A stretch of DNA of 48,623 bases from Actinomycetota bacterium. GTDB lineage: Bacteria; Actinomycetota; Actinomycetes; JBMOMH01. Below the pieces are notes generated by a model. The model made no database searches. It worked only from the letters and a program-made list of their open reading frames with translations, and was not told the origin of the DNA. This document shows, piece by piece, positions 12,219-32,342 of this stretch; position 1 is the stretch's first letter, and the number at the start of each line of letters is the position of its first letter. Where the stretch lies: the NCBI GenBank assembly GCA_049323135.1, contig JBMOMH010000295.1, positions 1 through 48,623 on the forward strand, read 5' to 3'. The translations under genes and the position numbers were made by a program.

Positions 12219-12291
12219 GGGCCGTTAGCTCAACTGGCAGAGCAGCGGACTTTTAATCCGCGGGTTCTGGGTTCGATCCCCAGGCGGCCCA
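12219..12291 (+). tRNA. tRNA-Lys (anticodon UUU)
   Basis: I folded a 73-nt cloverleaf by hand. Acceptor is gggccgt/gcggccc; D arm gctc-aactggca-gagc; anticodon arm gcgga-cTTTTaa-tccgc; variable loop gggtt; T arm ctggg-ttcgatc-cccag; discriminator A. CCA is not encoded. Confidence 0.9.
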
Positions 12292-12440
12292 CTCGCCCGG
12301 CACCTTCATGAGCGGTGTCTTTGCCCCTCGCACGATCCGTGGCCGGCGGTCGGTCTCCGGATGGGCTGGCCCGGCGCTCAGACTGAATCGGCATGACATG
12401 GCTGCTGGTCTGTGGCGCGGGTCTTCGGGACCCTGGAACC

Positions 12441-12794: not shown

Positions 12795-12808
12795 TGGCCG
12801 CAGGGCGG

Positions 12809-13510: not shown

Positions 13511-13532
13511 CCCGCAGGTCTTGTAGGCCCAG

Positions 13533-15674: not shown

Positions 15675-15754
15675 CCGGGGCCCAGCCGGACACCTGACCG
15701 GAGATCGGGCGCGATCACTACCGCCACCGGCTCCTGCTGGTTCGGGCTCGGCTG

Positions 15755-15834: not shown

Positions 15835-16089
15835 ATGCCCCGTGTGCACGTTCGAGTGGTGCGCTCCGGGCGTCGGCACAAGATCGGCAACCGTCGCATC
15901 CTCGAAGCGATGATCAATGCTGGCGTACCAACCGTGATCGGAGACCAGTTGCACTATCTCGGTCCCGACGGGCGTGGGGTACTCCTGGAGATCATCGCGG
16001 TGCCCGACGACCGCCATCCAGGCGGATCTGACGGTCATCCACGCCATGCCCGTCCAGCTTCGACCCGGCCGGAAGTGAACCAGCCATGA
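15835..16089 (+). CDS. Small TA-toxin-like protein (BrnT-like organisation), possibly frameshifted at its C-terminus
   Basis: 84-aa ORF with an ATGA overlap onto the downstream RHH gene. From about 16027 an alternative frame reads DLTVIHAMPVQLRPGRK*, which looks more protein-like than the in-frame tail GGSDGHPRHARPASTRPEVNQP. Confidence 0.4.
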   Translation: MPRVHVRVVRSGRRHKIGNRRILEAMINAGVPTVIGDQLHYLGPDGRGVLLEIIAVPDDRHPGGSDGHPRHARPASTRPEVNQP

Positions 16090-16412
16090 TCGACCCTCGC
16101 AAGTACGTCGTCCCGCGCGATGCCAGCATCGAGGACGTTGACCTTGATGTGGAGGAGGTGCGCCTACGGGATGGCCAGCGACTGACGAACGAACTCGCCG
16201 AGCAGCTGGCCCGGCAGACTCTGGTGGAGGCGCGCCGCCGCAACCTCGTCCCAGGGCGCAAGTCGCTCACGGGGGGCTCCATCCACTCGCCACGGGTGCA
16301 GTTCCGGGTGCCCGAAGGTCTGCGCGAAGCCGCCGAACGTCGCGCCGCAGAGGAGGGCGTGAGCTTGTCCGAGCTGGCCCGGGAGGCCCTGGAACGCTAC
16401 CTGGCTTCGTAG
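16086..16412 (+). CDS. Ribbon-helix-helix (CopG/BrnA-like) antitoxin-type protein
   Basis: 108 aa. The C-terminal RHH reads RVQFRVPEGLREAAERRAAEEGVSLSELAREALERYL. Confidence 0.7.
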   Translation: MIDPRKYVVPRDASIEDVDLDVEEVRLRDGQRLTNELAEQLARQTLVEARRRNLVPGRKSLTGGSIHSPRVQFRVPEGLREAAERRAAEEGVSLSELAREALERYLAS

Positions 16413-16486: not shown

Positions 16487-16717
16487 TCACGCGGTGACGA
16501 CTTCGGCGAAGGCGAGGAGGACGTTCACGACGTCGCGCCATCTGCCGGTAGCGACCAAGTCAAGCGGCTTTTCGTAGTCCAAGGCGGGGACTGGACTGTG
16601 CAGCCACTGCCGCGCGGCCTCGTCGCTGAAGACGCGGCGGGCGAGATCGAGCACCGTCTTCAGTTCGAGGAGACGTTCCTCGGTCTCCCGGCGCGGCGAG
16701 ACGTCGTGGTGCTGCCA
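16487..16717 (-). pseudogene. Orphan DUF2384 (Xre/MbcA/ParS-type antitoxin C-terminal domain) stub
   Basis: The C-terminal ~75 codons of track ORF 16487..17152 read ETEERLLELKTVLDLARRVFSDEAARQWLHSPVPALDYEKPLDLVATGRWRDVVNVLLAF, a clear DUF2384 pattern. There is no nearby start codon. The upstream part of the ORF is S/R-rich antisense junk, and no RES-type toxin follows. Confidence 0.4.
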
Positions 16718-16744
16718 GCGACTGTCCGATCCGCTCGCTGCGGT

Positions 16745-17327
16745 GTGCCCGGCCCGCGGGGAGCCGTGCTCGCCGTACTGACACGCACCGACTCGCCGCT
16801 GACTGGTCGTACCGTCGCGTCGCTGGTGACCCCACGGGCCAGCCTGCGGACCGTCCAACTGGCCTTGGACGACCTGGTCGCACACGGCCTGGTTAGCCGG
16901 TCGGGCGTATCTGTACGCGCTCAACCGGGACCATCTGGCCGTACCCGCTGTCGTCAGCCTTGTCGGGCTTCGTGAAGAGCTCCTCGATCGGATCCGCTCG
17001 ACGGTTGGCGCCTGGAGGCGGCCGGCAGATGCGATCTGGCTGTACGGGTCGGCTGCCCGCAGGGAGGACACGCGGGACAGCGACCTCGACCTGCTCGTGC
17101 TGCGCCCCGACGAGACGGACGGCGAGGATCCAACGTGGCAGGGGCAGCTCACCAGCCTGGCCGAGCAGGTTCACCGCTGGACCGGCAACCGTTGCGAGGT
17201 CCTGGAGCTGTCCGAGGCCGAACTGGCCCACGCCGTCGCCGACGGCGACCGGTTGAGCCGCGACCTGCTGCGCGACGCGGTGGGTGTGGTCGGACCCGCA
17301 CCTCGTCAGGTGCTGAGCGGGGGGTGA
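16745..17327 (+). pseudogene. Winged-helix + nucleotidyltransferase (pol-beta fold) protein, frameshifted near 16895-16905
   Basis: One frame (2 mod 3) reads VLAVLTRTDSPLTGRTVASLV...LALDDLVAHGLVSRS. The next frame continues GRAYLYALNRDHLAVPAV...IWLYGSAARREDTRDSDLDLLVLRPDE...EVLELSEAEL (GS-x-AR...DxD NTase motif). One coding sequence is split over two frames. Confidence 0.6.
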
Positions 17328-17436
17328 CCCGATCACCGACGCGCCTGCTTGAGGCCGCCGACGCCACGGTCCGCTGACCGGGGCAGCCGACGCGACTCCA
17401 CCCCTACTGTCCGACCGCGCCGCTAGCCTGGCGCCG

Positions 17437-20400
17437 ATGGACACCGACGCAGACGGCCCGGACCGGGCCGAAGGCCGGGGGGAGCCGGGGAAGCCCCCGG
17501 CTCCCGACGTACGCCTGGAGGACCTGACGCCGGGGGCCCGGGTCCGGGGGGTGGTCGTGGACGCCCCGGTGTCGGTGCTGGACGTGCGCTGGCACGGCTC
17601 CAACGCGGTCACGCTGACCTACCGGGACGACCACGGGGACGTGGCCCAGCGTCTGCTCTACCGGGACCACGAGCCGTCCCTTCGGATGGACGGCCAGGCC
17701 CGGGCCTACGCCTTCGACGGGGACGCGGACCTGTTCCGGCTGGCCGCCGAGGCGCACCGGATCCGGGTGGCGGCGCTGTTCGACCCCATGCTGGCCGTGA
17801 CCACCAGCGACCTGGAGCCGTTGCCGCACCAGATCAAGGCCGTGTACGGCGAGCTGCTCCCGCGCACCCCGCTGCGCTTCCTGCTGGCCGACGATCCCGG
17901 CTCCGGCAAGACCATCATGGCCGGGCTGTACATCAAGGAGCTGATCCTCCGCGGTGACCTCGCCCGGTGCCTGGTGGTCGCCCCGGGCAGCCTGGTCGAG
18001 CAGTGGCAGGAGGAGCTGCTGGACAAGTTCGGGCTGCGCTTCGAGCTGCTCACCCGAACCCTGGTGGACGCCACCCTGGGCGAGAACGTCTTCGACCGCC
18101 ACCCGCTGCTCATCGCCCGGATGGACCAGTTGTCCCGCTCGGAGGACCTGCGGGCGCTGCTGGAGCAGACCGACTACGACCTGGTCGTGGTCGACGAGGC
18201 GCACCGGATGTCCGCGCACTACTACGGCGGCGAGCTCAAGGCGACCCGACGCTACGAGCTGGGCCGGCTGCTGGGCCGGGTCACCCGGCACCTGCTGCTG
18301 ATGACGGCAACCCCGCACGCCGGCAAGGAGGAGGACTTCCAGCTGTTCCTGGCGCTGCTGGACGCCGACCGGTTCGAGGGCCGCTACCGGGACGCCGTGC
18401 ACTCCATCGACACCGCCGGGCTGATGCGGCGGATGGTCAAGGAGGAGCTACTCACCTTCGAGGGCAAGCCGTTGTTCCCGGAGCGGCGGGCCGACACGGT
18501 CAAGTACGAGCTCTCGCCGGGCGAGCGGGACCTTTACGAGGCGGTCACCGACTACGTACGCGAGCAGATGAACCGCGCCGACCAGCTCAAGGCGGCGGGA
18601 GAGGGACGCCGCGGCAACGCCGTCGGGTTCGCCCTCACCATCCTGCAGCGCCGCCTCGCCTCCAGTCCCGAGGCGATCCTGGCCAGCCTGGAGCGGCGCC
18701 GCCGCCGGCTGGAGAACCGCCGGGCCGAGGTGGCCGGCCTGGGCGGTCCCGGGTCCAGCCTGGAGCGCCGGCTCGCCGAGCTGCTCGGCCGCGGCGTCGA
18801 CCTCGACGAGGACGATCTGGACGACCTCACCGGTGAGGAGCGGGAGGAGGCCGAGGAGGCCGTCGTGGACTCTGCGTCGGCCGCCCGGACCCTCGCCGAG
18901 CTCGACAAGGAGATCGCCATCCTCGCCGACCTCACCGAGCTCGCCCGCCGCGTGCGCCACGCCGGCACGGATCGGAAGTGGACCGAGCTGCGCCGGCTGC
19001 TGCTCGACGAGGAGCCGATGTACGACGCCGCCGGCAACCGCCGCAAGATCATCATCTTCACGGAGCATCGGGACACCTTGAACTACCTGGTCGATCAGAT
19101 CCGTGGGCTGCTGGGCCGCGACGAGCCGGTGGTCGCGATCCATGGCGGCTTGACCCGGGAGGCGCGGCGGGCCGCGCAGGAGCTGTTCACCCAGGACAAG
19201 GACACCCACGTCCTGGTGGCCACCGACGCCGCGGGGGAGGGGCTGAACCTGCAGCGCGCCCACCTCATGGTCAACTACGACCTGCCGTGGAACCCGAACC
19301 GCATCGAGCAACGTTTCGGGCGTATCCACCGCATCGGGCAGACCGAGGTGTGCCGGCTGTGGAACCTGGTTGCCGCCGACACCCGGGAGGGTGCGGTGTT
19401 CCAGCGGTTGCTCGACAAGGTTGAGGAGCAGCGTCGCGCCTACCAGGGCCAGATCTTCGACGTGCTCGGTGAGGCGTTCGAGGGCCGGCCGCTGCGGGAG
19501 ATCCTGATCGAGGCGATCCGGTACGGCGAACGCCCCGAGGTCCGCGCCAGGCTGGACCAGGTCGTCGACGCCGAGGTCAGCAAGGGTCTGGACAACCTGC
19601 TGGCCGAACGCGCCCTGCACCAGGACGTGCTGGCCGAAGCCGACGTGGTGCAGCTGCGGCTGCGGATGGAGGAGGCCCGGGCCCGCCGGCTGCAGCCGCA
19701 CTACGTGCAGGCCTTCTTCGCCGCCGCGTTCCGGCTGCTCGGCGGGCGGATCAGCCCGCGGGAGGGTGGCCGGTTCGAGGTCACCCACGTCCCCGCCGAG
19801 ATGCGCGACCGCGACCGCCAGATCGGGCTGGGCGCGCCCGTGCTGCGCCGGTACGAACGGGTCTGCTTCGACCGGGCACACGCCCGTCTCCCCGGGCAGC
19901 CGACGGCCGACCTGATCGCCCCCGGGCACCCGCTGCTCGACGCGGCGATCGACCTGGTGGTCGAGCGGTACGGGACCCTGCTGAAGAGCGGCACGATCCT
20001 CGTCGACGCGAACGACCCTGGCGAGGAGCCACGGCTGCTGGTGGCGTTGACCCAGGCCATCACCGACGGGCACACCCCGCCCCGGACCGTGTCCAAGCGG
20101 TTCGACTTCCTCGAGCTCCGCGCGGACGGGACGGCCGGCGGCGCGGGCCCGGCGCCCTACCTGGACTACCGGGCGCCCACCGCCGAGGAGCGGGGGCTGC
20201 TCGACCGGCTGCTCGACGCACCCTGGCTGGCCGGCCGGGTGGAGGACGCCGCGGTTGGCTGGGCGGTCGAGCACGGGATCAGCGCGCACCTGGCCGAGGT
20301 GCAGGAACGGGTCCGTACGGCGGTCGCTCGCACCCGGGCCCAGGTCCGCCAACGGCTCACCCAGGAGATCAACTACTGGGACGCCCGCCACGCCGACCTG

Positions 20401-21015
20401 CTCGACCAGCAGGCCGCCGGCCGCCCCCTGAAGATCAAACCGGAGACCGCGGAGAAGCGGGCCCGTGACCTGGAACGCCGGCTGGAGCGGCGCCTGCGCG
20501 AGCTCGACGCGGACCAGGCGCTGCGCCCGCTGCCGCCGGTCGTCGCCGGCGGGGCCCTGGTCGTGCCCTGGGGGGCGGTGGAACGGCTGCGCGGGGAGCG
20601 GGGCCAGCCGGCCGCGGCGTACGCCAAGGACACCGCCGAGGTCGACCGGCGCGCCGTCGCCGCGGTGCTGGCCGCGGAGCGGGCGCTGGGCCGGCAGCCG
20701 GAGGAGATGCCGCACAACAACCCCGGGTACGACGTGCGCTCCCTGACCCGGGACGGGCACTGGGTGTTCGTCGAGGTGAAGGGCCGCCTGGCCGGGGCGG
20801 CCGACTTCGCGGTCACCCGCAACGAGGTTCTCTACGGCAAGAACGCCGACCGCTACCGGCTGGCCCTGGTGAGCGTCTCACCGGAGGGGCCGGCGTACGA
20901 CGAGCTGCGCTACCTGCTCGACCCGTTCCGGGGGGTCGACTTCGGCGACTTCGCCGCGGACGGGATCCGGGGCGACTGGACCACCATGTGGGCCCGAGGC
21001 GGGCCGCCGCAGTAA
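17437..21015 (+). CDS. SNF2/DEAD-like superfamily-2 helicase with a C-terminal DUF3883 (PD-(D/E)xK-like) domain
   Basis: 1192 aa. Motif I is LADDPGSGKT, motif II VVVDEAHRM, and the helicase C region is VLVATDAAGEGLNLQ...WNPNRIEQRFGRIHRIGQ. The C-terminal DUF3883 signature is NPGYDVRSLTRDGHWVFVEVKGR. There is no SD sequence. A TAGCCT hexamer ends 7 nt before the ATG, so the transcript may be leaderless. Confidence 0.92.
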   Translation: MDTDADGPDRAEGRGEPGKPPAPDVRLEDLTPGARVRGVVVDAPVSVLDVRWHGSNAVTLTYRDDHGDVAQRLLYRDHEPSLRMDGQARAYAFDGDADLFRLAAEAHRIRVAALFDPMLAVTTSDLEPLPHQIKAVYGELLPRTPLRFLLADDPGSGKTIMAGLYIKELILRGDLARCLVVAPGSLVEQWQEELLDKFGLRFELLTRTLVDATLGENVFDRHPLLIARMDQLSRSEDLRALLEQTDYDLVVVDEAHRMSAHYYGGELKATRRYELGRLLGRVTRHLLLMTATPHAGKEEDFQLFLALLDADRFEGRYRDAVHSIDTAGLMRRMVKEELLTFEGKPLFPERRADTVKYELSPGERDLYEAVTDYVREQMNRADQLKAAGEGRRGNAVGFALTILQRRLASSPEAILASLERRRRRLENRRAEVAGLGGPGSSLERRLAELLGRGVDLDEDDLDDLTGEEREEAEEAVVDSASAARTLAELDKEIAILADLTELARRVRHAGTDRKWTELRRLLLDEEPMYDAAGNRRKIIIFTEHRDTLNYLVDQIRGLLGRDEPVVAIHGGLTREARRAAQELFTQDKDTHVLVATDAAGEGLNLQRAHLMVNYDLPWNPNRIEQRFGRIHRIGQTEVCRLWNLVAADTREGAVFQRLLDKVEEQRRAYQGQIFDVLGEAFEGRPLREILIEAIRYGERPEVRARLDQVVDAEVSKGLDNLLAERALHQDVLAEADVVQLRLRMEEARARRLQPHYVQAFFAAAFRLLGGRISPREGGRFEVTHVPAEMRDRDRQIGLGAPVLRRYERVCFDRAHARLPGQPTADLIAPGHPLLDAAIDLVVERYGTLLKSGTILVDANDPGEEPRLLVALTQAITDGHTPPRTVSKRFDFLELRADGTAGGAGPAPYLDYRAPTAEERGLLDRLLDAPWLAGRVEDAAVGWAVEHGISAHLAEVQERVRTAVARTRAQVRQRLTQEINYWDARHADLLDQQAAGRPLKIKPETAEKRARDLERRLERRLRELDADQALRPLPPVVAGGALVVPWGAVERLRGERGQPAAAYAKDTAEVDRRAVAAVLAAERALGRQPEEMPHNNPGYDVRSLTRDGHWVFVEVKGRLAGAADFAVTRNEVLYGKNADRYRLALVSVSPEGPAYDELRYLLDPFRGVDFGDFAADGIRGDWTTMWARGGPPQ

Positions 21016-21096
21016 AGGAGATGAGACCAGCCTCAGTTTCCCGTAAGTTTTGCGCTACCCTCGGGACCGAGCCTACGAGAAACAAGGGGGGAAACT

Positions 21097-22833
21097 ATGG
21101 CGGTCAGCGCGGAGGTCCTCCACGTCCTCGACGCGGTGGCCGCCGGGGGACTGCCGGGCGACCTGGAGAGTGAGACGCTGGACTTCAAGACCCAGGGCCG
21201 GTCGGTTGCCGACACGCTGCGTGATCTTGCGGAGGCCGCCGCGTGCCTGGCGAACAGCGCCGGTGGGTCGATCATCGTCGGGGTGGCCGACGGCAAGCGA
21301 GGACCGACCGCGCTGGTCGGCACGGATCTTGACGGGCTCAAGGTCAAGCGGCGGATCTTCGAGCTCACCGACCCCCGGCTCACGGTCGGCGTCGACGAGC
21401 TGACCCGCACGGGTCGCCGGCTACTGGTGATCACCGTCCCGTCCAGCCCGGACGTCCACGCGGTCGGGGGCCGCTCGACCGAACGCATCGGCACGTCGTG
21501 TGAGCCGATGTCGAACTCGAGGATCGCGAGCGTCGTGGCCGAGCGACGAGGAGACGACTGGTCGGCGGACGACTCCACCGTGCCGATCGGAGAAGCTGAT
21601 CCGGTCGCCCTCGACCTGGCACGCTCGATGCTGGGGCGGTCTAGCGATGCACGGCGCGGCGCGCTCGGCCGCGCCAGTGACCCGGACCTGCTGCGCGGGC
21701 TCGGACTCGTCACGCCCCAACGCACGCTCGTCAACGCCGGGGCGCTGCTGTTCTGCGGGGACGGCGGCACGGCGCAACTCACGTACGTGCACCGCCGGAC
21801 ACCGGCGGGCGCGCTGGTCGTCAACGAGCCGCTGACCGCGCCGCTGCTCCGCGCGCTGGAGCGCGCGTTCGAACTCGTCGACGTCCGCTCCGACCGAACA
21901 TCAGTCAATCTTCCCGGCGGCCAGCAGATTCAGCTCGCGGATCTGCCCCCCGTCGCGGTCCGAGAGGCCCTCGTCAACGCCGTGATGCACCGGGACTACC
22001 GGCGGCCGGAAGCCGTCCATGTCGAGCACACCGCCACCCGGCTCGTCGTCACCTCGCCGGGCCCGTTCGTCACCGGCGTGACCGTGCACAACGTGCTGAC
22101 CACCTCGCCGCGGTCGCGCAACCCGCTGCTCGCCGGCGCCATCCGGATGCTCGGGCTCGCCGAGACGGCCGGCGCAGGAGTCGACCGCATGTACGCCGAG
22201 ATGGCCCGTCTCGGTCACCAGCCGCCGACCTTCACCGCCGACGCTGATCACGTTCGGGTGACCCTTCTCGGTGGGGCACCGAATACCTTCGTTGCCCGTT
22301 TCGTCTCGACCCTTCCCTCTGAGGAGTCGGAGGACGCCGACACGATGCTCACCTTGCTCACGCTGCTAGGGCAACGCACGGTCACGGCGGCGGCCATGGC
22401 ACCCCTCCTACAGAAGCCCGAACCCGAGGCGCAGGCGGTACTCGACCGCCTTTCATCCGAGGCGGTACGGCTGCTGGAGCGCACGCGGGAGTCAGCGCAA
22501 CGGCGACGGCCGGTCTACCGGCTGCGTGAGCACGTGGTGGCCACCCTGGGACCTGCGCTCACGTACCGCCGGCGCACCCTCGACGAGTACGACCGGAAAA
22601 TCATTGGCGTGGTACGCGAAGCGGGGGAGGTCAACGCGCGCATGGTAAGACTCCTTCTCGACCTGGATGCCGCTCCCGCATCGCGGGTGCTCGCTGACCT
22701 GGTGGAGCGCGGCATCCTCGTGAAGACCTCCCAAGCTCAGCGTGGGCCGTCGGTGGCCTATGGACCCGGCCCCGCGTTCCCAAAGCAGCCGCGCGGTCGC
22801 CGTAGAGCAGCCACCAGCGAGGAAGGCGCATGA
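21097..22833 (+). CDS. Schlafen/AlbA_2 DNA-binding domain + HATPase_c_4 (RecG-C-like) + C-terminal wHTH protein (COG2865 type)
   Basis: 578 aa. The N-terminus ESETLDFK...LANSAGGSIIVGV is AlbA_2-like. The central region REALVNAVMHRDY...SPGPF...SRNPLLAGAIRMLGLAETAGAGVDRM is HATPase_c_4-like. The C-terminal wHTH reads ASRVLADLVERGILV. RBS is aagggggg, and there is an ATGA overlap with the methylase gene. Confidence 0.85.
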   Translation: MAVSAEVLHVLDAVAAGGLPGDLESETLDFKTQGRSVADTLRDLAEAAACLANSAGGSIIVGVADGKRGPTALVGTDLDGLKVKRRIFELTDPRLTVGVDELTRTGRRLLVITVPSSPDVHAVGGRSTERIGTSCEPMSNSRIASVVAERRGDDWSADDSTVPIGEADPVALDLARSMLGRSSDARRGALGRASDPDLLRGLGLVTPQRTLVNAGALLFCGDGGTAQLTYVHRRTPAGALVVNEPLTAPLLRALERAFELVDVRSDRTSVNLPGGQQIQLADLPPVAVREALVNAVMHRDYRRPEAVHVEHTATRLVVTSPGPFVTGVTVHNVLTTSPRSRNPLLAGAIRMLGLAETAGAGVDRMYAEMARLGHQPPTFTADADHVRVTLLGGAPNTFVARFVSTLPSEESEDADTMLTLLTLLGQRTVTAAAMAPLLQKPEPEAQAVLDRLSSEAVRLLERTRESAQRRRPVYRLREHVVATLGPALTYRRRTLDEYDRKIIGVVREAGEVNARMVRLLLDLDAAPASRVLADLVERGILVKTSQAQRGPSVAYGPGPAFPKQPRGRRRAATSEEGA

Positions 22834-25622
22834 GCCGGGACAAGCGCAAGCTGATCGAGGTCGCGTTGCCACTGGAGGCGATCAACCGGGAGTCGGCGCG
22901 GGAGAAGTCGATCCGCCACGGGCACCCGTCCACGCTGCACCTATGGTGGGCCCGCCGACCCCTGGCCGCCTGCCGGGCGGTGCTGTTCGCGCAACTGGTC
23001 GACGACCCGTCGGCCCATCCGGAGAAGTTCCCGACCGAGGAGGCCCAGGCCAAGGAGCGCGCCCGCCTGTTCGAGTTGATCGAGCGGCTGGTGGTCTGGG
23101 AGAACGCCGGCGACGAGCGGCTGCTGCGGGCGGCGTACGACGAGATTGCCGCCTGCTTCGACGGCAAGCCGCCGGCGATCCTCGACCCGTTCGCGGGCGG
23201 TGGGTCGATTCCCCTGGAGGCGCAGCGGCTCGGCCTGGAGGCCCACGCCTCCGACCTCAACCCGGTCGCGGTGCTCATCAACAAGGCGCTCATCGAGATC
23301 CCGCCGAAGTGGGCCGGACGGCCACCGGTCTTCCCGGGCGCGGCCGAGTCACGGCTGGGCGACTGGCCCCGGGCGACCGGGCTTGCCGAGGACGTTCGCC
23401 GCTACGGGCAGTGGATGCGCGACGAAGCGGAGAAGCGCATCGGCCACCTCTACCCCAAGGCCACCCTGCCCGACGGATCAGCAGCCACGGTCATCGCCTG
23501 GATCTGGGCGCGCACCGTGACTTGCCCGAACCCCGCCTGCGGGATCGAGATGCCGCTGGTCCGCTCCTGGTGGCTGGGCAAGAAGAAGGGCAAGGAGGCC
23601 TACGTCGTCCCGCGGGTCGCGGACGGGCGGGTCGAGTTCTCGATCGGTCACGACCGCGGGCGCGCACCCACCAGCGACACCGATGGGACGGTGTCCCGCA
23701 CCGGCGCGCTATGCGTCGGGTGCCGTACGGCGGTGCCGCTGGCCTATGTCCGGGCCGAGGGGAAGGCTGGGCGGATCGGCGCCCGACTGATGGCGATCGC
23801 CGTCGAGGGCGACCGGCGGCGGGTGTACCTGGCGCCGACGCCCGAGCACGAGAAGGCCGCCGATGTTCCGGTGCCTGACGACGTGCCTGACAGCGAGCTG
23901 CCGGAGGCTGCCCTCGGCTTTCGCGTGCAGGGTTACGGGATGACTCGGCACGCCGACCTGTTCACCCCACGCCAGCTCACCGCGCTGACCACCTTCAGCG
24001 ACCTCGTCGGCGAGGCGCGGGAGAAGGTGTACGCCGACGCCCTGGCCGCCGGCCTGCCCGACGGCGAGAGCCTGGAAGCCGGCGGTACCGACGCCGCTGC
24101 CTACGCCGACAGCGTGGCGGTCTACTTGGCACTCGCGGCCAGCAGGATAAGTTCCACGAACGCAGCGTTGTGTCGGTGGCGCCCCGATCCTTCCAAGGAG
24201 AGCGTCAACGACACTTTCGCGCGCCAAGCGTTGTCGATGACCTGGGACTTCGCGGAGGGAAGTCCCTTCGTGCCCGGACCACCCGAGTTCGGCTGGAGTG
24301 TCCAGTGGGTGGTTCGCACTCTGGGCAGGCTTCCGAGCGGTCGAGGCCATGTCGCCCAGGTAGACGCTTCGACGAGCGACTACACCGGGGTCCTGGTTTC
24401 CACGGATCCGCCGTACTATGACAATGTCGGCTATGCCGACCTGTCGGACTTCTTCTACGTCTGGCTGCGACGCTCGTTGGGGAATGTGCTGCCCTCGCTG
24501 TTGGGGACAATGCTCACGCCCAAGGCTGAAGAGTTGGTCGCGGATCCGTTCCGCCGGGGCGGGAACGCCGAAGCCGAACGCTACTTCGAGGACGGCTTCA
24601 CCCGAGTATTCGCCCGCATCCGCGACGAGACGCCGGCCGATCTGCCCATCACCGTCTTCTACGCGTTCAAGCAGGCGGAGAACGACACGGAGGGCACGGC
24701 GTCGACCGGGTGGCAGACGCTTCTGGAAGGCATGCTGCAGTCCGGTTGGCAGGTAACGGGAACGTGGCCAATCCGCACCGAACTGGGCAACCGGATGCGC
24801 AGCCTGGACTCGAACGCTCTCGCTTCCTCGGTGGTGCTCGCGCTGCGACCCCGGCGCGAGACATCGGGTGCTACTACTCGACGCGCCTTCTTGGCGGAGT
24901 TGAAGGCCGAGATGCCGGACGCTCTTCGGCACCTCCAGCAGGGCTCGATCGCGCCGGTGGACCTGGCGCAGGCCGCGATCGGGCCGGGGATGGCGGTGTT
25001 CACCCGCTACCGCCAGGTCCTCGAGGCCGACGGTTCGCCGATGACAGTGCGAACGGCGCTTGCGCTGATCAACCAAGTGCTCGACGAGGTGCTCGCCGAG
25101 CAGGAGGGGGACTTCGACGCCGACACTCGGTTCTGCGTGAAGTGGTTCAGCCAGTTCGGCTGGGACGAGCAGCCCTACGACTGGGCCGAGGGACTCTCGC
25201 GGGCCACGAACACCTCGGTCGAGGGTCTGGTCCGCGGCGGGGTGTTCTGGGCGCGAGCCGGCAAGGCCCGCCTGCTCGGGCCGGACGAGCTCGCCGGAGG
25301 TTGGGACCCGCTGACCGACGAGCGGGTGAGCGCGTGGGAGGTCGTCGTACGCGTCGCCCAGGCGCTCGACGCCCGCGGGGGGGAGGAGGCGGCACGGCTC
25401 CTGGCCTCCGCTGGCCAGCGGGTCGACCTCGACACCGCCAAGGAGCTGGCCTACCTGCTGTACCGGACGTGTGAGAAGAAGGGCTGGACCGACAGCGCGT
25501 TGCTGTTCAATGGGCTGGGCACCTCATGGTCCGACTTGTCGTCGTCGGCGAGGGGGGCGGCCGCGGCTGCGCGTCCCGCCCAGGGCGCACTCGACTTCGA
25601 CGCTGCGGGGGATGAGCCGTGA
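22830..25622 (+). CDS. DUF1156-family DNA amino-methyltransferase (N6-A/N4-C type) with an internal Zn-ribbon
   Basis: 930 aa. The DUF1156 N-terminus reads KLIEVALPLEAINRESAREKSIRHGHPSTLHLWWARRPLAACRA. The AdoMet motif is ILDPFAGGGSIPLEA and the catalytic motif is VSTDPPYYDNVGY. The Cys4 ribbon is CPNPAC...CVGC. Confidence 0.92.
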   Translation: MSRDKRKLIEVALPLEAINRESAREKSIRHGHPSTLHLWWARRPLAACRAVLFAQLVDDPSAHPEKFPTEEAQAKERARLFELIERLVVWENAGDERLLRAAYDEIAACFDGKPPAILDPFAGGGSIPLEAQRLGLEAHASDLNPVAVLINKALIEIPPKWAGRPPVFPGAAESRLGDWPRATGLAEDVRRYGQWMRDEAEKRIGHLYPKATLPDGSAATVIAWIWARTVTCPNPACGIEMPLVRSWWLGKKKGKEAYVVPRVADGRVEFSIGHDRGRAPTSDTDGTVSRTGALCVGCRTAVPLAYVRAEGKAGRIGARLMAIAVEGDRRRVYLAPTPEHEKAADVPVPDDVPDSELPEAALGFRVQGYGMTRHADLFTPRQLTALTTFSDLVGEAREKVYADALAAGLPDGESLEAGGTDAAAYADSVAVYLALAASRISSTNAALCRWRPDPSKESVNDTFARQALSMTWDFAEGSPFVPGPPEFGWSVQWVVRTLGRLPSGRGHVAQVDASTSDYTGVLVSTDPPYYDNVGYADLSDFFYVWLRRSLGNVLPSLLGTMLTPKAEELVADPFRRGGNAEAERYFEDGFTRVFARIRDETPADLPITVFYAFKQAENDTEGTASTGWQTLLEGMLQSGWQVTGTWPIRTELGNRMRSLDSNALASSVVLALRPRRETSGATTRRAFLAELKAEMPDALRHLQQGSIAPVDLAQAAIGPGMAVFTRYRQVLEADGSPMTVRTALALINQVLDEVLAEQEGDFDADTRFCVKWFSQFGWDEQPYDWAEGLSRATNTSVEGLVRGGVFWARAGKARLLGPDELAGGWDPLTDERVSAWEVVVRVAQALDARGGEEAARLLASAGQRVDLDTAKELAYLLYRTCEKKGWTDSALLFNGLGTSWSDLSSSARGAAAAARPAQGALDFDAAGDEP

Positions 25623-25933
25623 CCGAGGCAGCAGCCCGTCGTGCGGTGACGCTGGCGGAGGTGCGGCGGCACCGCGAGGAGATTGTCGCCATGGGAGAGC
25701 GACACGGCCTCACCAATATCAGAGTGTTCGGCTCGGTCGCGCGCGGAGAGGCGGATGAACGCAGCGACCTTGACCTGCTCGTTGATCCCGGACCAAACGC
25801 GAGCCTGTTCACACTCACCGCCTTCGCGCTCGACGTGGAGACGGTGCTTCATGTCTTCACCCAGGTCGCCACGCCCAACGGGCTGAAGTCCCGGATCAAG
25901 GAACGTGTGCTGGCAGAGGCCGTGCCGCTGTGA
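25619..25933 (+). CDS. MntA-type minimal nucleotidyltransferase (type VII TA antitoxin family), without a canonical HepT partner
   Basis: 104 aa with a GTGA overlap onto the methylase stop. The pol-beta NTase motif is FGSVARGEADERSDLDLLVD. Confidence 0.85.
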   Translation: MTEAAARRAVTLAEVRRHREEIVAMGERHGLTNIRVFGSVARGEADERSDLDLLVDPGPNASLFTLTAFALDVETVLHVFTQVATPNGLKSRIKERVLAEAVPL

Positions 25934-25985
25934 GAAGTGATCGCGAGCGTCGGCCTCGAAGAAGTCCTGACAGGGGACATGTGAC

Positions 25986-28900
25986 ATGGCGATGAACAAC
26001 CGGGACCGGGTCGGTCGTGGGTTCGAGCTGCTGGCGGCCGGGTTGGAACCGTTCGTCGACGCTCTGATGAGCGCGGCCGCGGGCAGCACCGGTGACTGGG
26101 TCGCGCTGCTTGAGGCGCGGGAAGCGCAACGTCAGGGAGCGGCGAAGAAGTTCAACCGGTCCGACCCGGCCCTGCTGCTGAAGGTGCTGACCGAGGAGTG
26201 GCGGGTCTTCCGAGACCGGCTGTCCCGCACCGAGCAGGCGATGGCCTCGGAGCTGCGCGATGCCCGTAACCGCTGGGCGCACAACGAAGCGTTCAACGCC
26301 GACGACACCTACCGGACCCTCGACACGATGGAGCGGCTGCTCATCGCAGCCGGCGGTGTGGAGCAGGCCGAGGAGGTACGCCGGCTGCGGTTGGACCATC
26401 AGCGGGCCACGTACGAGGCGGAGACCCGCCGGGCCGTGAAGGCGGCCGCGGTCCCCAGCGTCCCGGGGGCGGGGCTGAAGCCGTGGCGGGACGTGATCCG
26501 ACCGCACGATGACGTGGCGAGGGGGCAGTTCAACGCCGCCGAGTTCGCCGCGGATCTGCACAAGGTTGCGCTGGGCGAGGGAGGTGCGGAGTATGACGAC
26601 CCGGTCCTCTTCTTCCGGCGCACCTACCTGACCGAGGGGCTGCGCGACCTGCTCGGCCGGGCCAGACGGCGGCTGTCCGGGGACATGAACGCCAGCCCGA
26701 TCGTCAACCTGCAGACGAACTTCGGCGGTGGCAAGACGCATTCGATGCTGGCGCTGTACCACCTGGCCTCTGGCACCCCGCTGTCTTCGTACCCGCAGGA
26801 GGTGCAGGACACCCTCGCCGGCGTCGACCCCGGCGCGCTGGGCAAGACCCGGCGGGTTGCGCTCGTTGGCACGCAGTTGCAGGCAAGCCAGCCGACGGTG
26901 CACGCCGACGGCACCGAGGTGCGCACCCTGTGGGGGGAGCTGGCCTGGCAGCTGGGTGGGCGGGCGGCGTACGACCTGGTGGCCGCGGCGGACCGCACCG
27001 CCACAAACCCGGGCCAGGCCCTGGGGGCCCTGCTGGCGGCGTACGCGCCCTGCCTGATCCTCATCGACGAGTGGGTGGCCTACGCCCGCCAGCTCTACGG
27101 TCGCGAAGACCTGCCGGCCGGAACGTTCGACACCCAGTTCACCTTCGCCCAGACCCTCACCGAGGTCGCCACGACCATCCCCGGTGCGCTGGTGGTCATC
27201 TCCATCCCGGCGTCCAGCGATGCCTCGGACGGCAGCGGGACCGGCGGCACCGACCTGGAGGTCGGGGGGCCGAACGGGCGCGCCGCGTTGGAGCGGCTGC
27301 AGAACGTGGTACGCCGGGTCGCCGACCAGTGGCGCCCGGCGTCGGCCAACGAGTCGTTCGAGATCGTCCGCCGGCGGCTCTTCGTCGAGCCGGGCGCCGA
27401 GGCGCGGCGGGACATCGCTGCCGTGGCGCGGCGGTTCGTGCAGTTCTACGCCGAGCATCGCGGCCAGTTCCCCCGGGAGTGTGCGGAGGCTGCCTACGAG
27501 GACCGGATCAAGGCTGCCTACCCGATCCACCCAGAGCTGTTCGACCGGCTCTACCAGGACTGGTCGACGCTGGAGCGTTTCCAGCGCACGCGCGGGGTGC
27601 TGCGGCTGATGAGCTCGGTGATCCACGCGCTGTGGGCGTCCGGTGACGCCGGGCCCCTGATCATGCCGGGGTCGGTGCCCCTGGACCTGCCGATGGTGTC
27701 CGGTGAGATAACGCAGTACCTGCCCGACGCGTGGAAGCCGATCATCGATGCCGACATCGATGGGGAGGGGTCGACGCCGGCGCGGGTTGACCTGGCCCGA
27801 CCCAGCTTCGGGCAGCGGGCGCTGACCCGTCGAATCGCCCGAACCATCTTCGTCGGGTCCGCCGCGACGTTGCAGACCGCACACAAGGGCATCGACCGGC
27901 AGAAGGTGTGGCTCGGTGTCGCCGTGCCCGGCGACACCGTGGGCAACTTCGGATCGGCCCTGGAGATGCTCGGTCAGCAGGCGACCTACCTCAACGTCGA
28001 CGGAGCGCGCTACTGGTACGACACCGCGGTCACCGTGAACCGGACCGCGCAGGACATGGCCGACCGGCTGCGTGAACACCCGGAGGAGGTGTGGGCCGAG
28101 GTCGTCCGGCGGCTGCAGGCCGAGCGTTCCGCGCGAGGGGACTTCGCCGCGGTGCACGTCTGCCCGGAGGACACCGGCGGCGTGCCGGACAGCGAGGAGG
28201 CCAAGCTCGTCGTCCTGCACCCGCAGCACCTGCACGGCCGGGGGCAGGACGACTCCCCGGCCCGGGCCTTCGCCCAGCGGTGCCTGGACACCCGCGGCTC
28301 GGCGCAGCGAACCAACCGCAACACCCTCGTGTTCCTCGCCCCCGACAGCGGCCGGTGGGAGGAGCTGGGCGACGCGGTCCGTGACTTCCTCGCCTGGCGG
28401 GATGTGGCGCTGCGCGCCGACGACCTGAACTTGACGCCGCAGCAGAAGGCGCAGGCCGAGCGCCGCCGCGACCAGGCCGACGACACCGTGCGGATGCGCA
28501 TCCTTGCCTCCTACATCTGGGCGCTGGTGCCGGAGCAGCCCGACCCCGCGCGTCCGGTGACCTGGGCCGCGGTAAAGGCCGAGGGGGCGCAGGAGCGGCT
28601 GGCCGACCGGGTGACGGTGAAGATGCGCCAGGGCGGGCTGCTCGCCACGGCGTACGGGGCGCGCAACGTGCGCATGGACCTGGACGGCCCGCTGCGGTCG
28701 GTGTGGGCGAAGGGCCACGTACGCGTCGGCGACCTGTGGTCCTACTACTGCCGCTACCCGTACCTGGGTCGGCTGCGGGATCGTTCGGTGCTCGACGAGG
28801 CACTGCGTAGCGTGCTGGGCGAGCTCACCTGGGAGCTTGAGGGGTTCGCCCTGGCCACCGGCTACGACGAGGCGACCGGCTCGTACGCCGGGCTGGCCAT

Positions 28901-29324
28901 CCCGCACCGGGACGGGTTCGGGCAGGTCACCGACGCGACCCTCGTCGTGCAGCCGGCCGTGGCCCTTGCCCAGGTGGCCTCCGCTCCGCCGCCTACCACG
29001 ACCGGGCCCGTGGCGGCTGCTGGGGGCAGCGCCGGGGGGGTGGCCCCGGCCAGCGGCGATGCCGGTGGGGTCGTGGCGGCCCCGGTGCCACGCAACACCC
29101 GATTCTTCGGGGTGGTGCGGCTCAACCCGGAACGCTACGGCCGGGACTTCTCCCGGGTGGCCCAGGAGGTGCTGGCGCACCTTGCCGGGGCGGGGACCGA
29201 CCTGAACGTCAGCCTCGAGATCTCGGCCGGCAAGCCGGAAGGGTTCGGCGACGACACCGTCCGGATCGTCACCGAGAACGCGCGGACGCTGAAGTTCGAC
29301 CAGCACGGCTTCGAGCGAGCGTAG
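25986..29324 (+). CDS. DUF499-family P-loop ATPase with an N-terminal Swt1-like HEPN domain
   Basis: 1112 aa. The N-terminal ~140 aa are helical and carry an R-x4-H motif, RNRWAH (nt 26265-26282). Walker A is NFGGGKTHS and Walker B is LILIDEW. The long C-terminal region is typical of DUF499 proteins. Confidence 0.9.
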   Translation: MAMNNRDRVGRGFELLAAGLEPFVDALMSAAAGSTGDWVALLEAREAQRQGAAKKFNRSDPALLLKVLTEEWRVFRDRLSRTEQAMASELRDARNRWAHNEAFNADDTYRTLDTMERLLIAAGGVEQAEEVRRLRLDHQRATYEAETRRAVKAAAVPSVPGAGLKPWRDVIRPHDDVARGQFNAAEFAADLHKVALGEGGAEYDDPVLFFRRTYLTEGLRDLLGRARRRLSGDMNASPIVNLQTNFGGGKTHSMLALYHLASGTPLSSYPQEVQDTLAGVDPGALGKTRRVALVGTQLQASQPTVHADGTEVRTLWGELAWQLGGRAAYDLVAAADRTATNPGQALGALLAAYAPCLILIDEWVAYARQLYGREDLPAGTFDTQFTFAQTLTEVATTIPGALVVISIPASSDASDGSGTGGTDLEVGGPNGRAALERLQNVVRRVADQWRPASANESFEIVRRRLFVEPGAEARRDIAAVARRFVQFYAEHRGQFPRECAEAAYEDRIKAAYPIHPELFDRLYQDWSTLERFQRTRGVLRLMSSVIHALWASGDAGPLIMPGSVPLDLPMVSGEITQYLPDAWKPIIDADIDGEGSTPARVDLARPSFGQRALTRRIARTIFVGSAATLQTAHKGIDRQKVWLGVAVPGDTVGNFGSALEMLGQQATYLNVDGARYWYDTAVTVNRTAQDMADRLREHPEEVWAEVVRRLQAERSARGDFAAVHVCPEDTGGVPDSEEAKLVVLHPQHLHGRGQDDSPARAFAQRCLDTRGSAQRTNRNTLVFLAPDSGRWEELGDAVRDFLAWRDVALRADDLNLTPQQKAQAERRRDQADDTVRMRILASYIWALVPEQPDPARPVTWAAVKAEGAQERLADRVTVKMRQGGLLATAYGARNVRMDLDGPLRSVWAKGHVRVGDLWSYYCRYPYLGRLRDRSVLDEALRSVLGELTWELEGFALATGYDEATGSYAGLAIPHRDGFGQVTDATLVVQPAVALAQVASAPPPTTTGPVAAAGGSAGGVAPASGDAGGVVAAPVPRNTRFFGVVRLNPERYGRDFSRVAQEVLAHLAGAGTDLNVSLEISAGKPEGFGDDTVRIVTENARTLKFDQHGFERA

Positions 29325-29560
29325 GTCGCCGGCGGCGCACCGCCTTGGGATGGAATTGGACCGAGCAGGCGGGGTGGGTGCTGGCGGGTGATCCGTTCGA
29401 CGAAGACCCTGTGTACAGCGTCGCCCGTCCCGCTGAGCCGGGCCCGTCCACCAGGGCCTTGGCGAAGTCCTCCAGCAGGTGGTCCCAACGGACCAAGAGC
29501 GGCGGGCTCACCTCGAAGCTGGGTGGAACGGATTGGGCGCTGCACGATCCCAAGCACTGG

Positions 29561-29588
29561 CTTTAGACAGCTCTAGACCCTTTAGACA
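29561..29588 (+). repeat. Three iteron-like ~10-bp direct repeats (CTTTAGACA / CTCTAGACC / CTTTAGACA) in AT-richer non-coding DNA
   Basis: The sequence is ctttagacag ctctagaccc tttagaca. TAGAC cores lie at 29564, 29574 and 29583 (spacing 10 and 9 nt). This is at the right flank of the defence operon. Confidence 0.5.
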
Positions 29589-29777
29589 TCGCTGGCCTTC
29601 CTGCGCGTGCCCGGTCTTCACGGGTAAGTAAGTGTGGGGTGGGCGCGACGCGCCGGGGCTGGTTGAGGCTGCGGTGGGCGTGGTCCCTCAGCATTCAGGG
29701 ACCCAGGATGTCGGGTTCTCGGGAGTTCGGGACGCTCGAGTGGAGCCAGCGCCGAGGATGGCCGACGTACCGTCCCG

Positions 29778-30269
29778 TCACTCACGCTCGGCGAGTGCGG
29801 CGAGCCGGTCAAGGGAGGCGTGCAGCTTGTCTGCCGTGGTCGCCCGGGCGCGGGGTAGCCGCTGCTCGTCGCGCAGCTGGGTCCAGTCGTAGGTGTGCGA
29901 GACGAGGGTCCGTGCCGCGTCGAGGGGCACCAGCTCCCACCGCCACAGGTGGCCCGCCGGTTCCTGGCCCGGCTCCGCCGGCCGCCACGCGATCCGCCGA
30001 CCCTCTTCGAACTCGACGACGTGGTTCTCCCGGACGGCCCCCCTGGTCAGCGTCATGGTGAACACGTCACCAACGGCGCGGACTCGCTGGCCCTCCGGCG
30101 CGACGGCCAGGTTGTCGTTGCCGTCCCATCGAGGCTGTTGCGCCGGGTCGGCGACGAGTTCGAAGATCTTCTCAGCGCTCGCCTCGATCTGGCGCGAGGC
30201 GGTCACCACGCGGGCAGCCTCCTGGTTGGTCATGCCGACATCCAAGCATCCGCCCGAGCCCAGCGTCAC
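29778..30269 (-). CDS. SRPBCC (polyketide cyclase/dehydrase-like, START fold) family protein
   Basis: 163 aa, or 151 aa from the ATG at 30233. It reads [30 protein letters not shown]...[24 protein letters not shown] at 30269 overlaps (GTGA) the stop of the DinB-like remnant upstream. Confidence 0.8.
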
Positions 30270-31005: not shown

Positions 31006-32055
31006 ATGCGGGTGATGGAGCTACTGATCGCCGTCAACCCCGACCCGGACTCGCGGCTGCCGTACCTGCTGCGGCTGCCGATCGGCGGCGGTCTGGTGCT
31101 GCGTACCGCCGGCACCTAGCCGCGGACGAGTGCCCTGTACTGCTACCCGGTCGAGGCGGACGAGTGGCCGGCGGACCCGCAGATCGTCGAGCGGGTCGCG
31201 CTGCGTTCCTGTGTCCGGCGCGGCGCGGCCATCGACGTGGTTGCCGAGCGGGCGCGGGAGAACCGCTCCCAGATCGTGTTTACCCAGGCCCGTGGCCGCG
31301 ACGCGGTGTTCTGGCAGTCACCGCGTACGCGCAAGCAGGCCCGGCCGAACGTCCGCACCCCGACCGCTCGCGCCGCAGGGCTGGCGGACCTGCAGATCGT
31401 CGTGGATGCGCACGAACGGTACGGCTACCGCTTCGCCGGCCAGCAGGTGAGCGTCGTACGCCGGGCGCTCCCCGCCGGCGACTACGGGCTGGTCGTCGAC
31501 GGCCGGCTGGTCGCTGCTGTGGAGCGGAAGTCGCTGCCCGACCTGGCGTCGAGCCTGACCAGCGGGAAGCTGCGCTACGCCCTCGGTGAGCTGGCGGCAC
31601 TGCCGCGAGCCGCGGTCGTCGTCGAGGAGCGGTACTCGGCACTGCTCAAGCCGAGCTGGATCCGCCCGTCGCTCGTCCTCGACGGCCTGGCCGAGTTGCA
31701 TGTGCGCTGGCCGACGGTGCCCATCGTGTACGCCGAGACGCGGCCGTTGGCCGAGGAGTGGACCTACCGCTACCTGGCCGCGGCGTACGCGTGGGCCCGG
31801 ACCGAGCTGGACCTCGGCGTCAACCTCCCTGGACCCACCCTCGACCTCGCCCGCCGATCCCCCCGCGCGCGCCGGCCGGCTACCGACCTGGCGGCACAGG
31901 GGGGCGGGTCCGCCGGCCCGCCGGCTGCTGAGGTCCGGGCTTGGGCGCACGCCAGCGGCCTCGCCGTCGCCGACCGGGGCCGGCTGCGCCCGGAGGTCTG
32001 GCAGGCCTGGTACGCCGCCCACCAGGCCGCCGGGTCACCACCCGTCGGGGGCTAG
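31006..32055 (+). pseudogene. ERCC4-type (PD-(D/E)xK) nuclease fused to an Lsr2-like C-terminal DNA-binding domain, interrupted by an in-frame TAG at 31117-31119
   Basis: Track ORFs 30694..31119 and 31237..32055 are in the same frame and are separated only by one TAG. The reading is ...LVLRTAGT*PRTSALYCYP, where TGG/Trp would fit. The ERCC4 motif is GDYGLVVDGRLVAAVERKSLPDLASS. The C-terminus EVRAWAHASGLAVADRGRLRPEVWQAWYAAH matches the Lsr2 RGR DNA-binding domain. Confidence 0.7.
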
Positions 32056-32105: not shown

Positions 32106-32342
32106 ATGACACGATCGATCACCATCCGGGACGTTCCTGACGAGGTGGGGGACGAGCTCGCTTCCCGAGCCGCGCTCACCGGCCGGTCCCTGCAGGAGTA
32201 CCTGCGCGCCCAGCTCGTGGCGCTGGCAGCCACACCCGACCCGGAGGTCGCGGTCGCCCGGATGCGGGCCCGAAAGGCGGCCACGGGTACCACGCTCACC
32301 GCCGAGCAGATTCTTCGGCACCGAGACGCCGACCGCCGGTGA
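32106..32342 (+). CDS. vapB: VapB/FitA-like (Arc/RHH-type) antitoxin
   Basis: 78 aa from the ATG at 32106: MTRSITIRDVPDEVGDELASRAALTGRSLQEYLRAQLVALA. GTGA overlap with the PIN gene. Confidence 0.75.
   Translation: MTRSITIRDVPDEVGDELASRAALTGRSLQEYLRAQLVALAATPDPEVAVARMRARKAATGTTLTAEQILRHRDADRR

Follow-up and report, generated by a model that had tools for sequence, protein, structure and literature searches.

HEPN-DUF499 proteins encoded next to SNF2-DUF3883 helicases and methylases were first noted in 2013, with Ava_2192 as the prototype (Anantharaman et al., PMC3710099). The Hma system, made up of the helicase HmaA, the methyltransferase HmaB and the ATPase HmaC, was defined by Payne et al. 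(2021, PMC8565338), who counted 1,638 loci across 26 phyla; it has since been renamed the Type-1 DUF499-centred BREX-related (BR) system and is found in 2446 taxa. Of the 2446, 1370 have an ATPase fused to a HEPN domain, and 79% have a helicase fused to a restriction endonuclease (NOV_C) (PMC12839542, 2026). Hma loci often carry foreign genes. In 2024, the group that had defined Hma found embedded genes in 62.7% of 1,485 Hma systems, 96.7% of the embedded genes being co-oriented, and used this "guilt by embedding" to find new defences (bioRxiv 10.1101/2024.01.29.577857); in another survey, 66.5% of the hma loci had insertions (PMC11232893). Here, we describe such a locus on a contig of an Actinomycetota bacterium (JBMOMH010000295.1, 48,623 nucleotides, analysed at its full length and called the window in the following). 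A preliminary description had taken five genes of the window for one integrated, non-canonical restriction-modification (R-M)-like defence system. We consider it highly probable that they are a complete Hma (Type-1 BR) system carrying two independent embedded modules, a Schlafen protein of the pSlfn type and an orphan MntA antitoxin.

The five open reading frames (ORFs) on the plus strand (Table 1) lie where the preliminary description had placed them, and their junctions agree as well: an ATGA overlap at 22830 (gene 2/hmaB), a GTGA overlap at 25619 (hmaB/mntA) and gaps of 81 bp (hmaA/Schlafen gene) and 52 bp (mntA/hmaC). Every domain it had named was matched in a Pfam search, the wHTH of gene 2 only below the threshold, and its motifs DPPY, RNRWAH and DUF3883 E-x-K were located in HmaB, HmaC and HmaA, respectively. 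Genes 1, 3 and 5 are near-full-length matches to the HmaA, HmaB and HmaC profiles of PADLOC-DB (E = 0 or 8e-269), so that the label "Hma", mentioned in that description, turns out to be correct, and the R-M-like character claimed there is the published reading of such systems. PADLOC defines Hma by one copy each of HmaA, HmaB and HmaC, encoded on one strand, without pseudogenes and with at most three embedded genes between neighbours. In the window, hmaA, hmaB and hmaC are present once each, as complete ORFs on the plus strand; one gene is embedded between hmaA and hmaB, and one gene plus a 55-nt remnant between hmaB and hmaC. The features of Type-1 BR systems are all there: a DUF499 ATPase with HEPN domain, a DUF1156 N6-adenine methyltransferase and a Swi2/Snf2 helicase with a C-terminal restriction endonuclease. 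Compared to Hma as described by Payne et al., the core proteins, their order, their domains and the co-orientation of the embedded genes are the same; the core is without difference and only the embedded pair, pSlfn and MntA with deleted hepT, is lineage-specific.

Table 1. Features of the hma locus and its surroundings (aa, amino acids; wHTH, winged helix-turn-helix; an empty cell means that no strand is given).
Feature	Position	Strand	Description
hmaA (gene 1)	17437..21015	+	Swi2/Snf2 helicase with C-terminal NOV_C PD-(D/E)xK nuclease, 1192 aa
NOV_C nuclease domain of HmaA	20647..20892	+	aa 1071-1152, Pfam PF13020, E = 2.5e-15
Schlafen gene (gene 2)	21097..22833	+	SLFN_AlbA_2 nuclease, HATPase_c_4 (HisKinase-like) and probable C-terminal wHTH, 578 aa
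hmaB (gene 3)	22830..25622	+	DUF1156 N6-adenine DNA methyltransferase, 930 aa
Variable (target-recognition) region of hmaB	23580..24929	+	aa 251-700
mntA (gene 4)	25619..25933	+	minimal nucleotidyltransferase (MNT), orphan type VII antitoxin, 104 aa
hepT remnant	25930..25984	+	55 nt: first 22 nt and last 32 nt joined
hmaC (gene 5)	25986..29324	+	HEPN_Swt1-fused DUF499 ORC/Cdc6-type AAA+ ATPase, 1112 aa
HEPN_Swt1 domain of HmaC	26016..26348	+	R94-N-R-W-A-H99
DUF5615/PIN_10-like gene	12441-12794	-	inside remnant island
RHH protein gene	16086-16412		flanks operon
Xre/MbcA/ParS-C antitoxin gene	16487-17152	-	no recognisable toxin partner found
ERCC4-Lsr2 fusion gene	31237-32055		downstream of operon
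PIN protein gene	32339-32740		flanks operon

Two of the three features that the preliminary description had regarded as non-canonical are the described norm, as the published Hma/BR surveys show. One of them, the presence of two potential effectors (a nuclease on the helicase and HEPN on the ATPase), is a common form that has been in the literature since 2013, as the frequencies of the HEPN and endonuclease fusions given above show. Neither the type of system nor its two-effector form nor the embedding of defence genes is new to the literature. Each unit of the locus (Hma, pSlfn and PDC-S09/MntA) has been catalogued before, though not all five genes as one characterised system, so that the refuting condition set in the preliminary description applies by half.

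HmaA matches its profile (PDLC00659) with 1472 bits, residues 25-1165 aligning to positions 2-1148 of 1176. This score is about four-fold higher than those of the competing PADLOC profiles DrmD (383 bits) and BrxHII (295 bits), and the DpdE, ZorD and PLD_Helicase models also score several-fold below it. Membership in DISARM is ruled out by the NCBIfam model DISARM_DrmD (368 bits, cut-off 610) and by the absence of DrmA, DrmB and DrmC partners from the operon; BREX type 3 is ruled out because Pfam finds neither a PglZ nor a BrxC-type (DUF6079) ATPase gene in the operon. The Pfam domains of HmaA are SNF2-rel_dom, ResIII, Helicase_C and NOV_C (the DUF3883 of the preliminary description), and the DEAH helicase motif is at residues 253-256. 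In the NOV_C domain, E1113-V-K1115 are the putative catalytic residues, and D1099 and E1130 are probably further ones, D1099 being assigned by inspection only. The closest experimentally studied protein is HmaA of Halomonas meridiana (Liu et al. 2024, PMC11232893), which has the same architecture and in which D1084, E1104, K1106 and E1121 are required for nicking and defence. The spacing from K1106 to E1121 (15 residues) equals the K-to-E spacing of the window protein; the D-to-E spacing is 20 residues in Halomonas and 14 in the window, if D1099 is the right aspartate. Halomonas HmaA alone shields E. coli from T4, in dependence on the NOV_C nickase residues, and both nuclease and helicase are needed (PMC11232893). 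By homology, the window HmaA with its Snf2 motor and NOV_C nickase would be the DNA effector, moving along unmodified DNA and introducing nicks or breaks.

HmaC gave 893 bits with profile PDLC00662 over residues 164-1110; since the match begins only at residue 164, the HEPN domain lies outside the profile. Pfam identifies HEPN_Swt1 at residues 11-121 (E = 1.3e-32) followed by DUF499, and the two domains occur together in 120 of the 120 best HmaC homologues. Walker A (G247-G-G-K-T251) and the putative Walker B (D361-E362) are invariant in 17 aligned homologues, as are N95, A98 and H99 of the HEPN domain. The HEPN motif reads RNRWAH-N-E; the residue at H+2 is E101 and not the tyrosine of the RX4HXY motif, and this position is unconserved in the alignment. 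HEPN_Swt1 may serve as a second, RNA-directed back-up effector, a proposal from the literature that is unproven.

HmaB matches profile PDLC00660 with 1113 bits (residues 5-913 on positions 8-959 of 967). Pfam finds DUF1156 at residues 12-82 (E = 9e-33) and, just under the threshold, a D12 methyltransferase; motif I (DPFAGGG, 119-125) and motif IV (DPPY, 526-529) are present. The PADLOC models DUF1156_MTase (92 bits) and DUF499 (108 bits) score far below the HmaB and HmaC profiles, and the PADLOC lists for these two proteins hold only Hma, DUF1156/DUF499 and generic MTase_II models. Nothing in these results points to MADS, the other label mentioned in the preliminary description, at which no direct test was aimed. 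Sequence searches of the Protein Data Bank (PDB) with HmaB and HmaC gave no matches.

The closest relative of the locus is on a metagenome contig, L081, with a DNA identity of 90-91% across the greater part of the operon that reaches as much as 98% in the flanking sequence. HmaA is 93.6% identical to its L081 orthologue at the amino acid level and HmaC 90-91.1%. The ratio of non-synonymous to synonymous substitution rates (dN/dS) between the two loci is 0.31 for HmaB and ranges from 0.16 to 0.21 for the other four genes (0.18 for HmaA). In HmaB, aa 1-250 and 701-900 are 86-94% and 90-94% identical to L081, whereas identity over aa 251-700 is 24-70% per 50-aa bin; dS is 1.35 in this variable region and 0.43-0.49 in the ends, and dN/dS is 0.35 and 0.14, respectively. 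Over aa 251-450 the window HmaB is 64-90% identical to the proteins of L082 and L090 and 25-56% identical to that of L081, its nearest relative overall. Because the central residues are closer to the distant L082 and L090 than to L081, these data indicate that HmaB is a mosaic whose target-recognition region was apparently exchanged by recombination while HmaA and HmaC stayed 91-94% identical. Such a mosaic fits methyltransferase-directed specificity. The window and L081 would make a handy natural pair for asking if, in Type-1 systems, methylation and restriction both take their specificity from HmaB alone, as shown for MANTIS.

For the core, the sister system MANTIS/Gao_RL (Type-2 BR), which has a homologous DUF499 ATPase and DUF1156 methyltransferase, currently offers the best mechanistic model. 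In MANTIS, the methyltransferase is loaded and activated by the ATPase together with a small co-regulator. It hemimethylates 6-bp sites that are asymmetric and determines which sites are modified and which DNA is restricted, and the effector is a helicase-nuclease (bioRxiv 10.64898/2026.09.23.753747). Transferred from the MANTIS ATPase MtsA, the most likely role of HmaC would be that of an ATP-dependent loader or scaffold, which loads HmaB or activates it and puts together the recognition complex. HmaB would methylate the DNA of the host, with its central variable region determining the site. The window differs from MANTIS in having NOV_C instead of a phospholipase D (PLD) nuclease on the helicase, a HEPN fusion, and no gene like that of the small co-regulator MtsB, whose family is given as DUF3780 in the BR survey and as DUF3870 in the MANTIS preprint. 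For gene 1, Pfam lists no PLD domain at E ≤ 0.01, the best stretch of the PADLOC PLD_Helicase model covers only helicase residues 487-665, and NCBIfam phospholipD_antiphage reaches 163 bits at a cut-off of 1100. No DUF3780-type match was seen among the five genes, which Pfam assigns to other families, and the only small gene is the MNT gene. Membership in Type-2 BR/MANTIS is ruled out by the missing partners and by the NCBIfam Type-2 equivalogs, which reach 136-163 bits where 1000-1200 are required. With all its motifs intact, this actinobacterial Hma is test material for Type-1 methylation, which is yet to be demonstrated.

Between hmaB and hmaC lies mntA, which the preliminary description had counted as a built-in antitoxin-type nucleotidyltransferase and thus as another non-canonical part of the system. 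The MNT belongs to NTP_transf_2/Polbeta in Pfam, matches the PADLOC candidate PDC-S09 over its whole length (102 bits) as well as PDB entry 1wot (E = 6.5e-17), has an intact GSX10DXD motif (G38-S39-x10-D50-L-D52, residues 38-52), and its gene is translationally coupled to hmaB by the GTGA overlap. An orthologous 104-aa MNT gene precedes hepT in L081, L082 and L083. The gene order in L081 is HmaA–Slfn (578 aa)–HmaB–MNT (104 aa)–HepT (111 aa, PF01934)–HmaC, and in L082 and L083 (76% HmaC identity) it is HmaA–HmaB–MNT–HepT–HmaC. Intact hepT genes are also present in L006, L088, L090 and L091; the HepT proteins of the relatives have 111-112 aa and RX4HXY, and their genes have the GTGA overlap with the MNT gene. 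In the window, the first 22 nt of hepT (GTGAGAAGTGATCGCGAGCGTC) still overlap the mntA stop codon, and the last 32 nt end in TGA one base ahead of the hmaC ATG. DNA alignment with L081 and L082 reveals a frameshifting deletion of 281 bp inside hepT that includes the catalytic/AMPylation site RNRIIHGY (RX4HXY); in blastn the break is at 9685|9968 of L081, corresponding to 25951|25953 of the window. The intact L081 protein reads VRSDRERLLDM...RNRIIHGY...VEEILTEDM*; the remnant, translated in two different frames, gives VRSDRER... and ...EEVLTGDM*. The start of hmaC and the AGGGGA upstream of it were kept across the deletion. The 52-bp gap before hmaC is thus the scar of a sixth gene that had been overlooked, and no other hepT gene was found in the window.

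On these grounds we take the MNT for the antitoxin left over from an embedded MntA/HepT pair that has lost its toxin gene. A type VII pair was once lodged between hmaB and hmaC, and the 281-bp deletion removed the HepT toxin in this strain, leaving MntA as an intact and coupled, but presumably orphan, antitoxin beside the 55-nt scar. The type VII HepT/MntA pair of Shewanella (SO_3166/SO_3165, PMC7641770) shares the 104-aa MNT with GSX10DXD; the window differs in the deleted HepT and in the location of the pair inside a defence operon. PDC-S09 comes from a PADLOC library of untested candidates found as genes embedded in defence systems (bioRxiv 10.1101/2024.01.29.577857), and comparison with the relatives shows the window MNT to be half of a toxin-antitoxin (TA) pair rather than a stand-alone system of this kind; HepT is without a model in PADLOC. 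The locus is a clear natural case of an embedded TA pair decaying toxin-first, with an orphan antitoxin left, and it warns against taking such an MNT for a dedicated regulator of the neighbouring HEPN protein or for a single-gene defence (PDC-S09).

The orphan mntA could have been kept for a new purpose after the loss of HepT: MntA would AMPylate HEPN_Swt1 of HmaC, or a different HEPN toxin encoded in the genome, and so work as a safety catch or an anti-addiction antitoxin. Its GSX10DXD motif and its coupling to hmaB are intact, it lies directly upstream of a gene for a HEPN-bearing protein, and its dN/dS of 0.21 is no higher than that of its neighbours. MntA neutralises HepT by polyadenylylating the tyrosine of RX4HXY (PMC7641770), and this tyrosine is absent from the HEPN domain of HmaC. 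Moreover, of 80 genomic loci from many phyla that encode HEPN-HmaC relatives, 79 have no MNT upstream of hmaC, and the only one that has (L006) has HepT as well. A second hepT whose product could be the target is not found in the 48.6-kb window. The survey and the missing acceptor tyrosine rule out the MNT as a conserved partner of HEPN-HmaC. Relaxed selection on mntA was not detected, but this is a weak test, resting on 15 non-synonymous differences and a deletion that may be recent; most of the divergence between the window and L081 is probably older than the deletion, so the ratio says little about selection since then. A new role of MntA after HepT loss is, therefore, very unlikely.

The other embedded gene encodes a protein with SLFN_AlbA_2 at residues 24-139 and HATPase_c_4 at 306-390 (E = 4e-18) and with similarity to PDB entry 3lmm over residues 41-450 (E = 9.5e-46). 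The Schlafen motif Ex4(E/D)xK is present as ESETLDFK (24-31; E24...D29-F-K31) and is kept in 27 of 27 homologues, embedded and solo. The C-terminus (aa ~495-547) has sub-threshold matches to HTH_27 (about aa 501-547; E = 0.003, 18 bits at a cut-off of 22), MarR_2 and HTH_24. The gene sits between hmaA and hmaB also in L081, with the same length of 578 aa, and in a metagenome scan orthologues of at least 59% identity were found at this position in L088-L092, L100 and L113; in L112 and L114 hmaB is directly downstream of the Schlafen gene, at the contig end. The full six-gene order with Schlafen, MNT and HepT is present in L088, L090 and L091. Stand-alone homologues (56-58% identity) occur in L098, L101, L107 and L110, next to integrase, transposase or housekeeping genes; in a neighbour-joining tree they are intermingled with the embedded forms. 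Because solo homologues exist and mix with the embedded forms, the Schlafen gene appears to be a self-contained, autonomous embedded module. Its kind is known: in at least 1017 taxa, Schlafen-minimal His-kinase-wHTH proteins occur in close linkage with BREX/BR loci (PMC12839542), and pSlfn-HisKinase-HTH is the second commonest pSlfn architecture (19.2%; PMC13056530). The window protein shares with this class the Ex4(E/D)xK SLFN_AlbA_2 domain, HATPase_c_4 and the location in a BR locus, and its C-terminal region looks HTH-like by the sub-threshold matches. Phage defence has not been demonstrated for any member of the class; EcoSlfn7 and RorSlfn5 protected E. coli, the latter by Mn-dependent tRNA cleavage (PMC13056530), and this proven tRNase has an Ig-like partner domain. 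Presumably, the Schlafen–HisKinase–HTH protein of the window is a phage-activated tRNase and provides an RNA-directed back-up.

The preliminary description had seen the Schlafen-like protein as a non-canonical component and possible sensor or regulator, which the autonomy of the module and its known occurrence beside BREX/BR loci speak against. A related reading takes the protein chiefly for a DNA-binding factor that controls transcription of the operon, like regulators known from other defence islands, and not for a nuclease effector. The sub-threshold C-terminal winged-helix match would suit such a role, and so would the failure of HisKinase-type Schlafens to defend E. coli. Strict conservation of the catalytic motif in all homologues argues for a nuclease, the solo homologues adjoin unrelated genes, and many Hma loci work in nature although they have no Schlafen gene. 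We consider a mainly regulatory function unlikely.

Among the 80 loci, the hmaB/hmaC junction could be measured in 71; in 52 of these the two genes are adjacent and separated by less than 160 bp. Insertions were present in 16 of 55 hmaA/hmaB junctions and 19 of 71 hmaB/hmaC junctions. The inserted genes include those for GmrSD-like proteins (seven loci), YhcG/DUF1016 nucleases (four loci), a DUF4062-HATPase_c_4 protein, MazF, Sacsin-like proteins of 1400 aa and several unknowns. The Halomonas meridiana locus likewise has insertions between its hma genes; it embeds Septu and an AAA_21 pair, not Schlafen and MntA, and only its HmaA was tested. Embedding of genes is a documented norm in Hma loci.

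This distribution bears on the view that the five genes form one integrated system in which the Schlafen protein is a sensor or regulator and the MNT regulates HEPN. Tight coupling by ATGA and GTGA overlaps and short gaps would be expected of such a system, the arrangement HmaA-Slfn-HmaB-MNT(-HepT)-HmaC recurs in two lineages (window/L081 and L006/L088/L090/L091), and the identities of Schlafen and Hma proteins drop in parallel. However, close relatives at 75-77% HmaC identity have plain HmaABC (L084 and the P0004 locus), L082 has no Schlafen gene, in L112 hmaB and HEPN-hmaC are ~120 bp apart without an MNT or hepT match, and in most loci of the survey nothing lies between hmaB and hmaC. Some Schlafen homologues live alone, HepT is there as the true MNT partner in every MNT-bearing relative, and unrelated, co-oriented passengers are what Hma loci usually carry. 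Integration of all five genes is quite unlikely.

Some observations nevertheless weigh against a complete Hma system with two independent passengers. When Halomonas HmaB was overexpressed, modification of phage could not be detected, and HmaA was enough by itself against T4 (PMC11232893), so that an R-M-like division of labour remains unproven for Type-1 systems. Of the proteins tested against an E. coli phage panel, five gave no protection, two of them HisKinase-type Schlafens (PMC13056530). The identity of the Schlafen proteins (59-73%) parallels that of HmaC (60-70%), which is compatible with functional integration, and MntA, with its intact motif and low dN/dS, is without sign of decay and may have a retained function. 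It is tempting to speculate that pSlfn and MntA(/HepT), co-inherited with Hma over ~30-40% protein divergence, are functionally wired to it, the RNase modules firing when Hma is blocked and MntA being retargeted, for example to HEPN_Swt1 of HmaC via a non-canonical acceptor, but we give this idea a very low probability.

Decay of the whole locus into a non-functional relic, with the hepT deletion as one symptom, is just as hard to credit and highly improbable. Besides hepT itself, the embedded-gene decay in relatives (a truncated Schlafen gene in L006) and a NOV_C-only fragment in L086 could be cited for it. Yet neither the three core genes nor the Schlafen gene are shortened compared to profiles and orthologues, their catalytic motifs are intact, dN/dS is 0.16-0.18 for HmaA, the Schlafen protein and HmaC, and the hmaC start with its upstream AGGGGA survived the deletion. 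The favoured reading is that of two passengers of known kinds, one of them half-deleted, in a well-preserved member of a known defence family.

In L006, which is from a metagenome-assembled genome of a Frankiaceae member, only the C-terminal third of the Schlafen protein (residues 348-569) matches, in a 323-aa ORF at 2956-3927; its near-identical sister contigs L088, L090 and L091 retain the full-length gene. HmaB of L006 and L090 is 74-100% identical per 50-aa bin, mostly 97-100%. From such comparisons, embedded passengers seem to decay independently of the Hma core. L086 (5805-15211) has two DUF1156 methyltransferase genes flanking HEPN-hmaC and a 150-aa NOV_C-only fragment called where hmaA would lie, and looks like a rearranged or decaying locus.

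The operon had been assigned to a tRNA-linked accessory region among TA modules. TA-like genes do flank it (Table 1), without a match to any defence system in PADLOC, but the piece bounded by tRNA sequence excludes it. The tRNA-Lys(UUU) gene at 12219-12292 is the sole Rfam match in the window, and its 3' 38 nt recur at 13689-13727 (2 mismatches in 30); 12293-13727 appears to be a 1.4-kb, integrase-less remnant island bounded by this repeat. One tRNA-bounded island holding the operon is ruled out, the repeat being upstream of the operon and no integrase being found among the ORFs scanned (~12.4-45.6 kb). The same flanking genes are present in L081, and the region is therefore common to related strains. 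A promoter and terminator scan of 16900-29900 returned no sites, and is uninformative at ~70% G+C.

The second copy of the tRNA-Lys 3' end falls within a called ORF for a 713-aa CARDB/BNR protein (13533-15674), so that the real start of this ORF may be further downstream. Directly 3' of hmaC, L081 has three extra genes (267, 183 and 142 aa; 13368-15725), the middle one of which matches PDC-M32A weakly. In their place the window has ~420 bp of unrelated sequence (29337-29760), a second variable spot at the 3' edge of the operon. ARAGORN called a "tRNA-???" of 94 nt with a four-base anticodon at 5341-5434, probably a false positive because Rfam finds nothing there. The G+C content is unusually high in the first 12 kb of the window, at 73-80% compared to 65-76% downstream.

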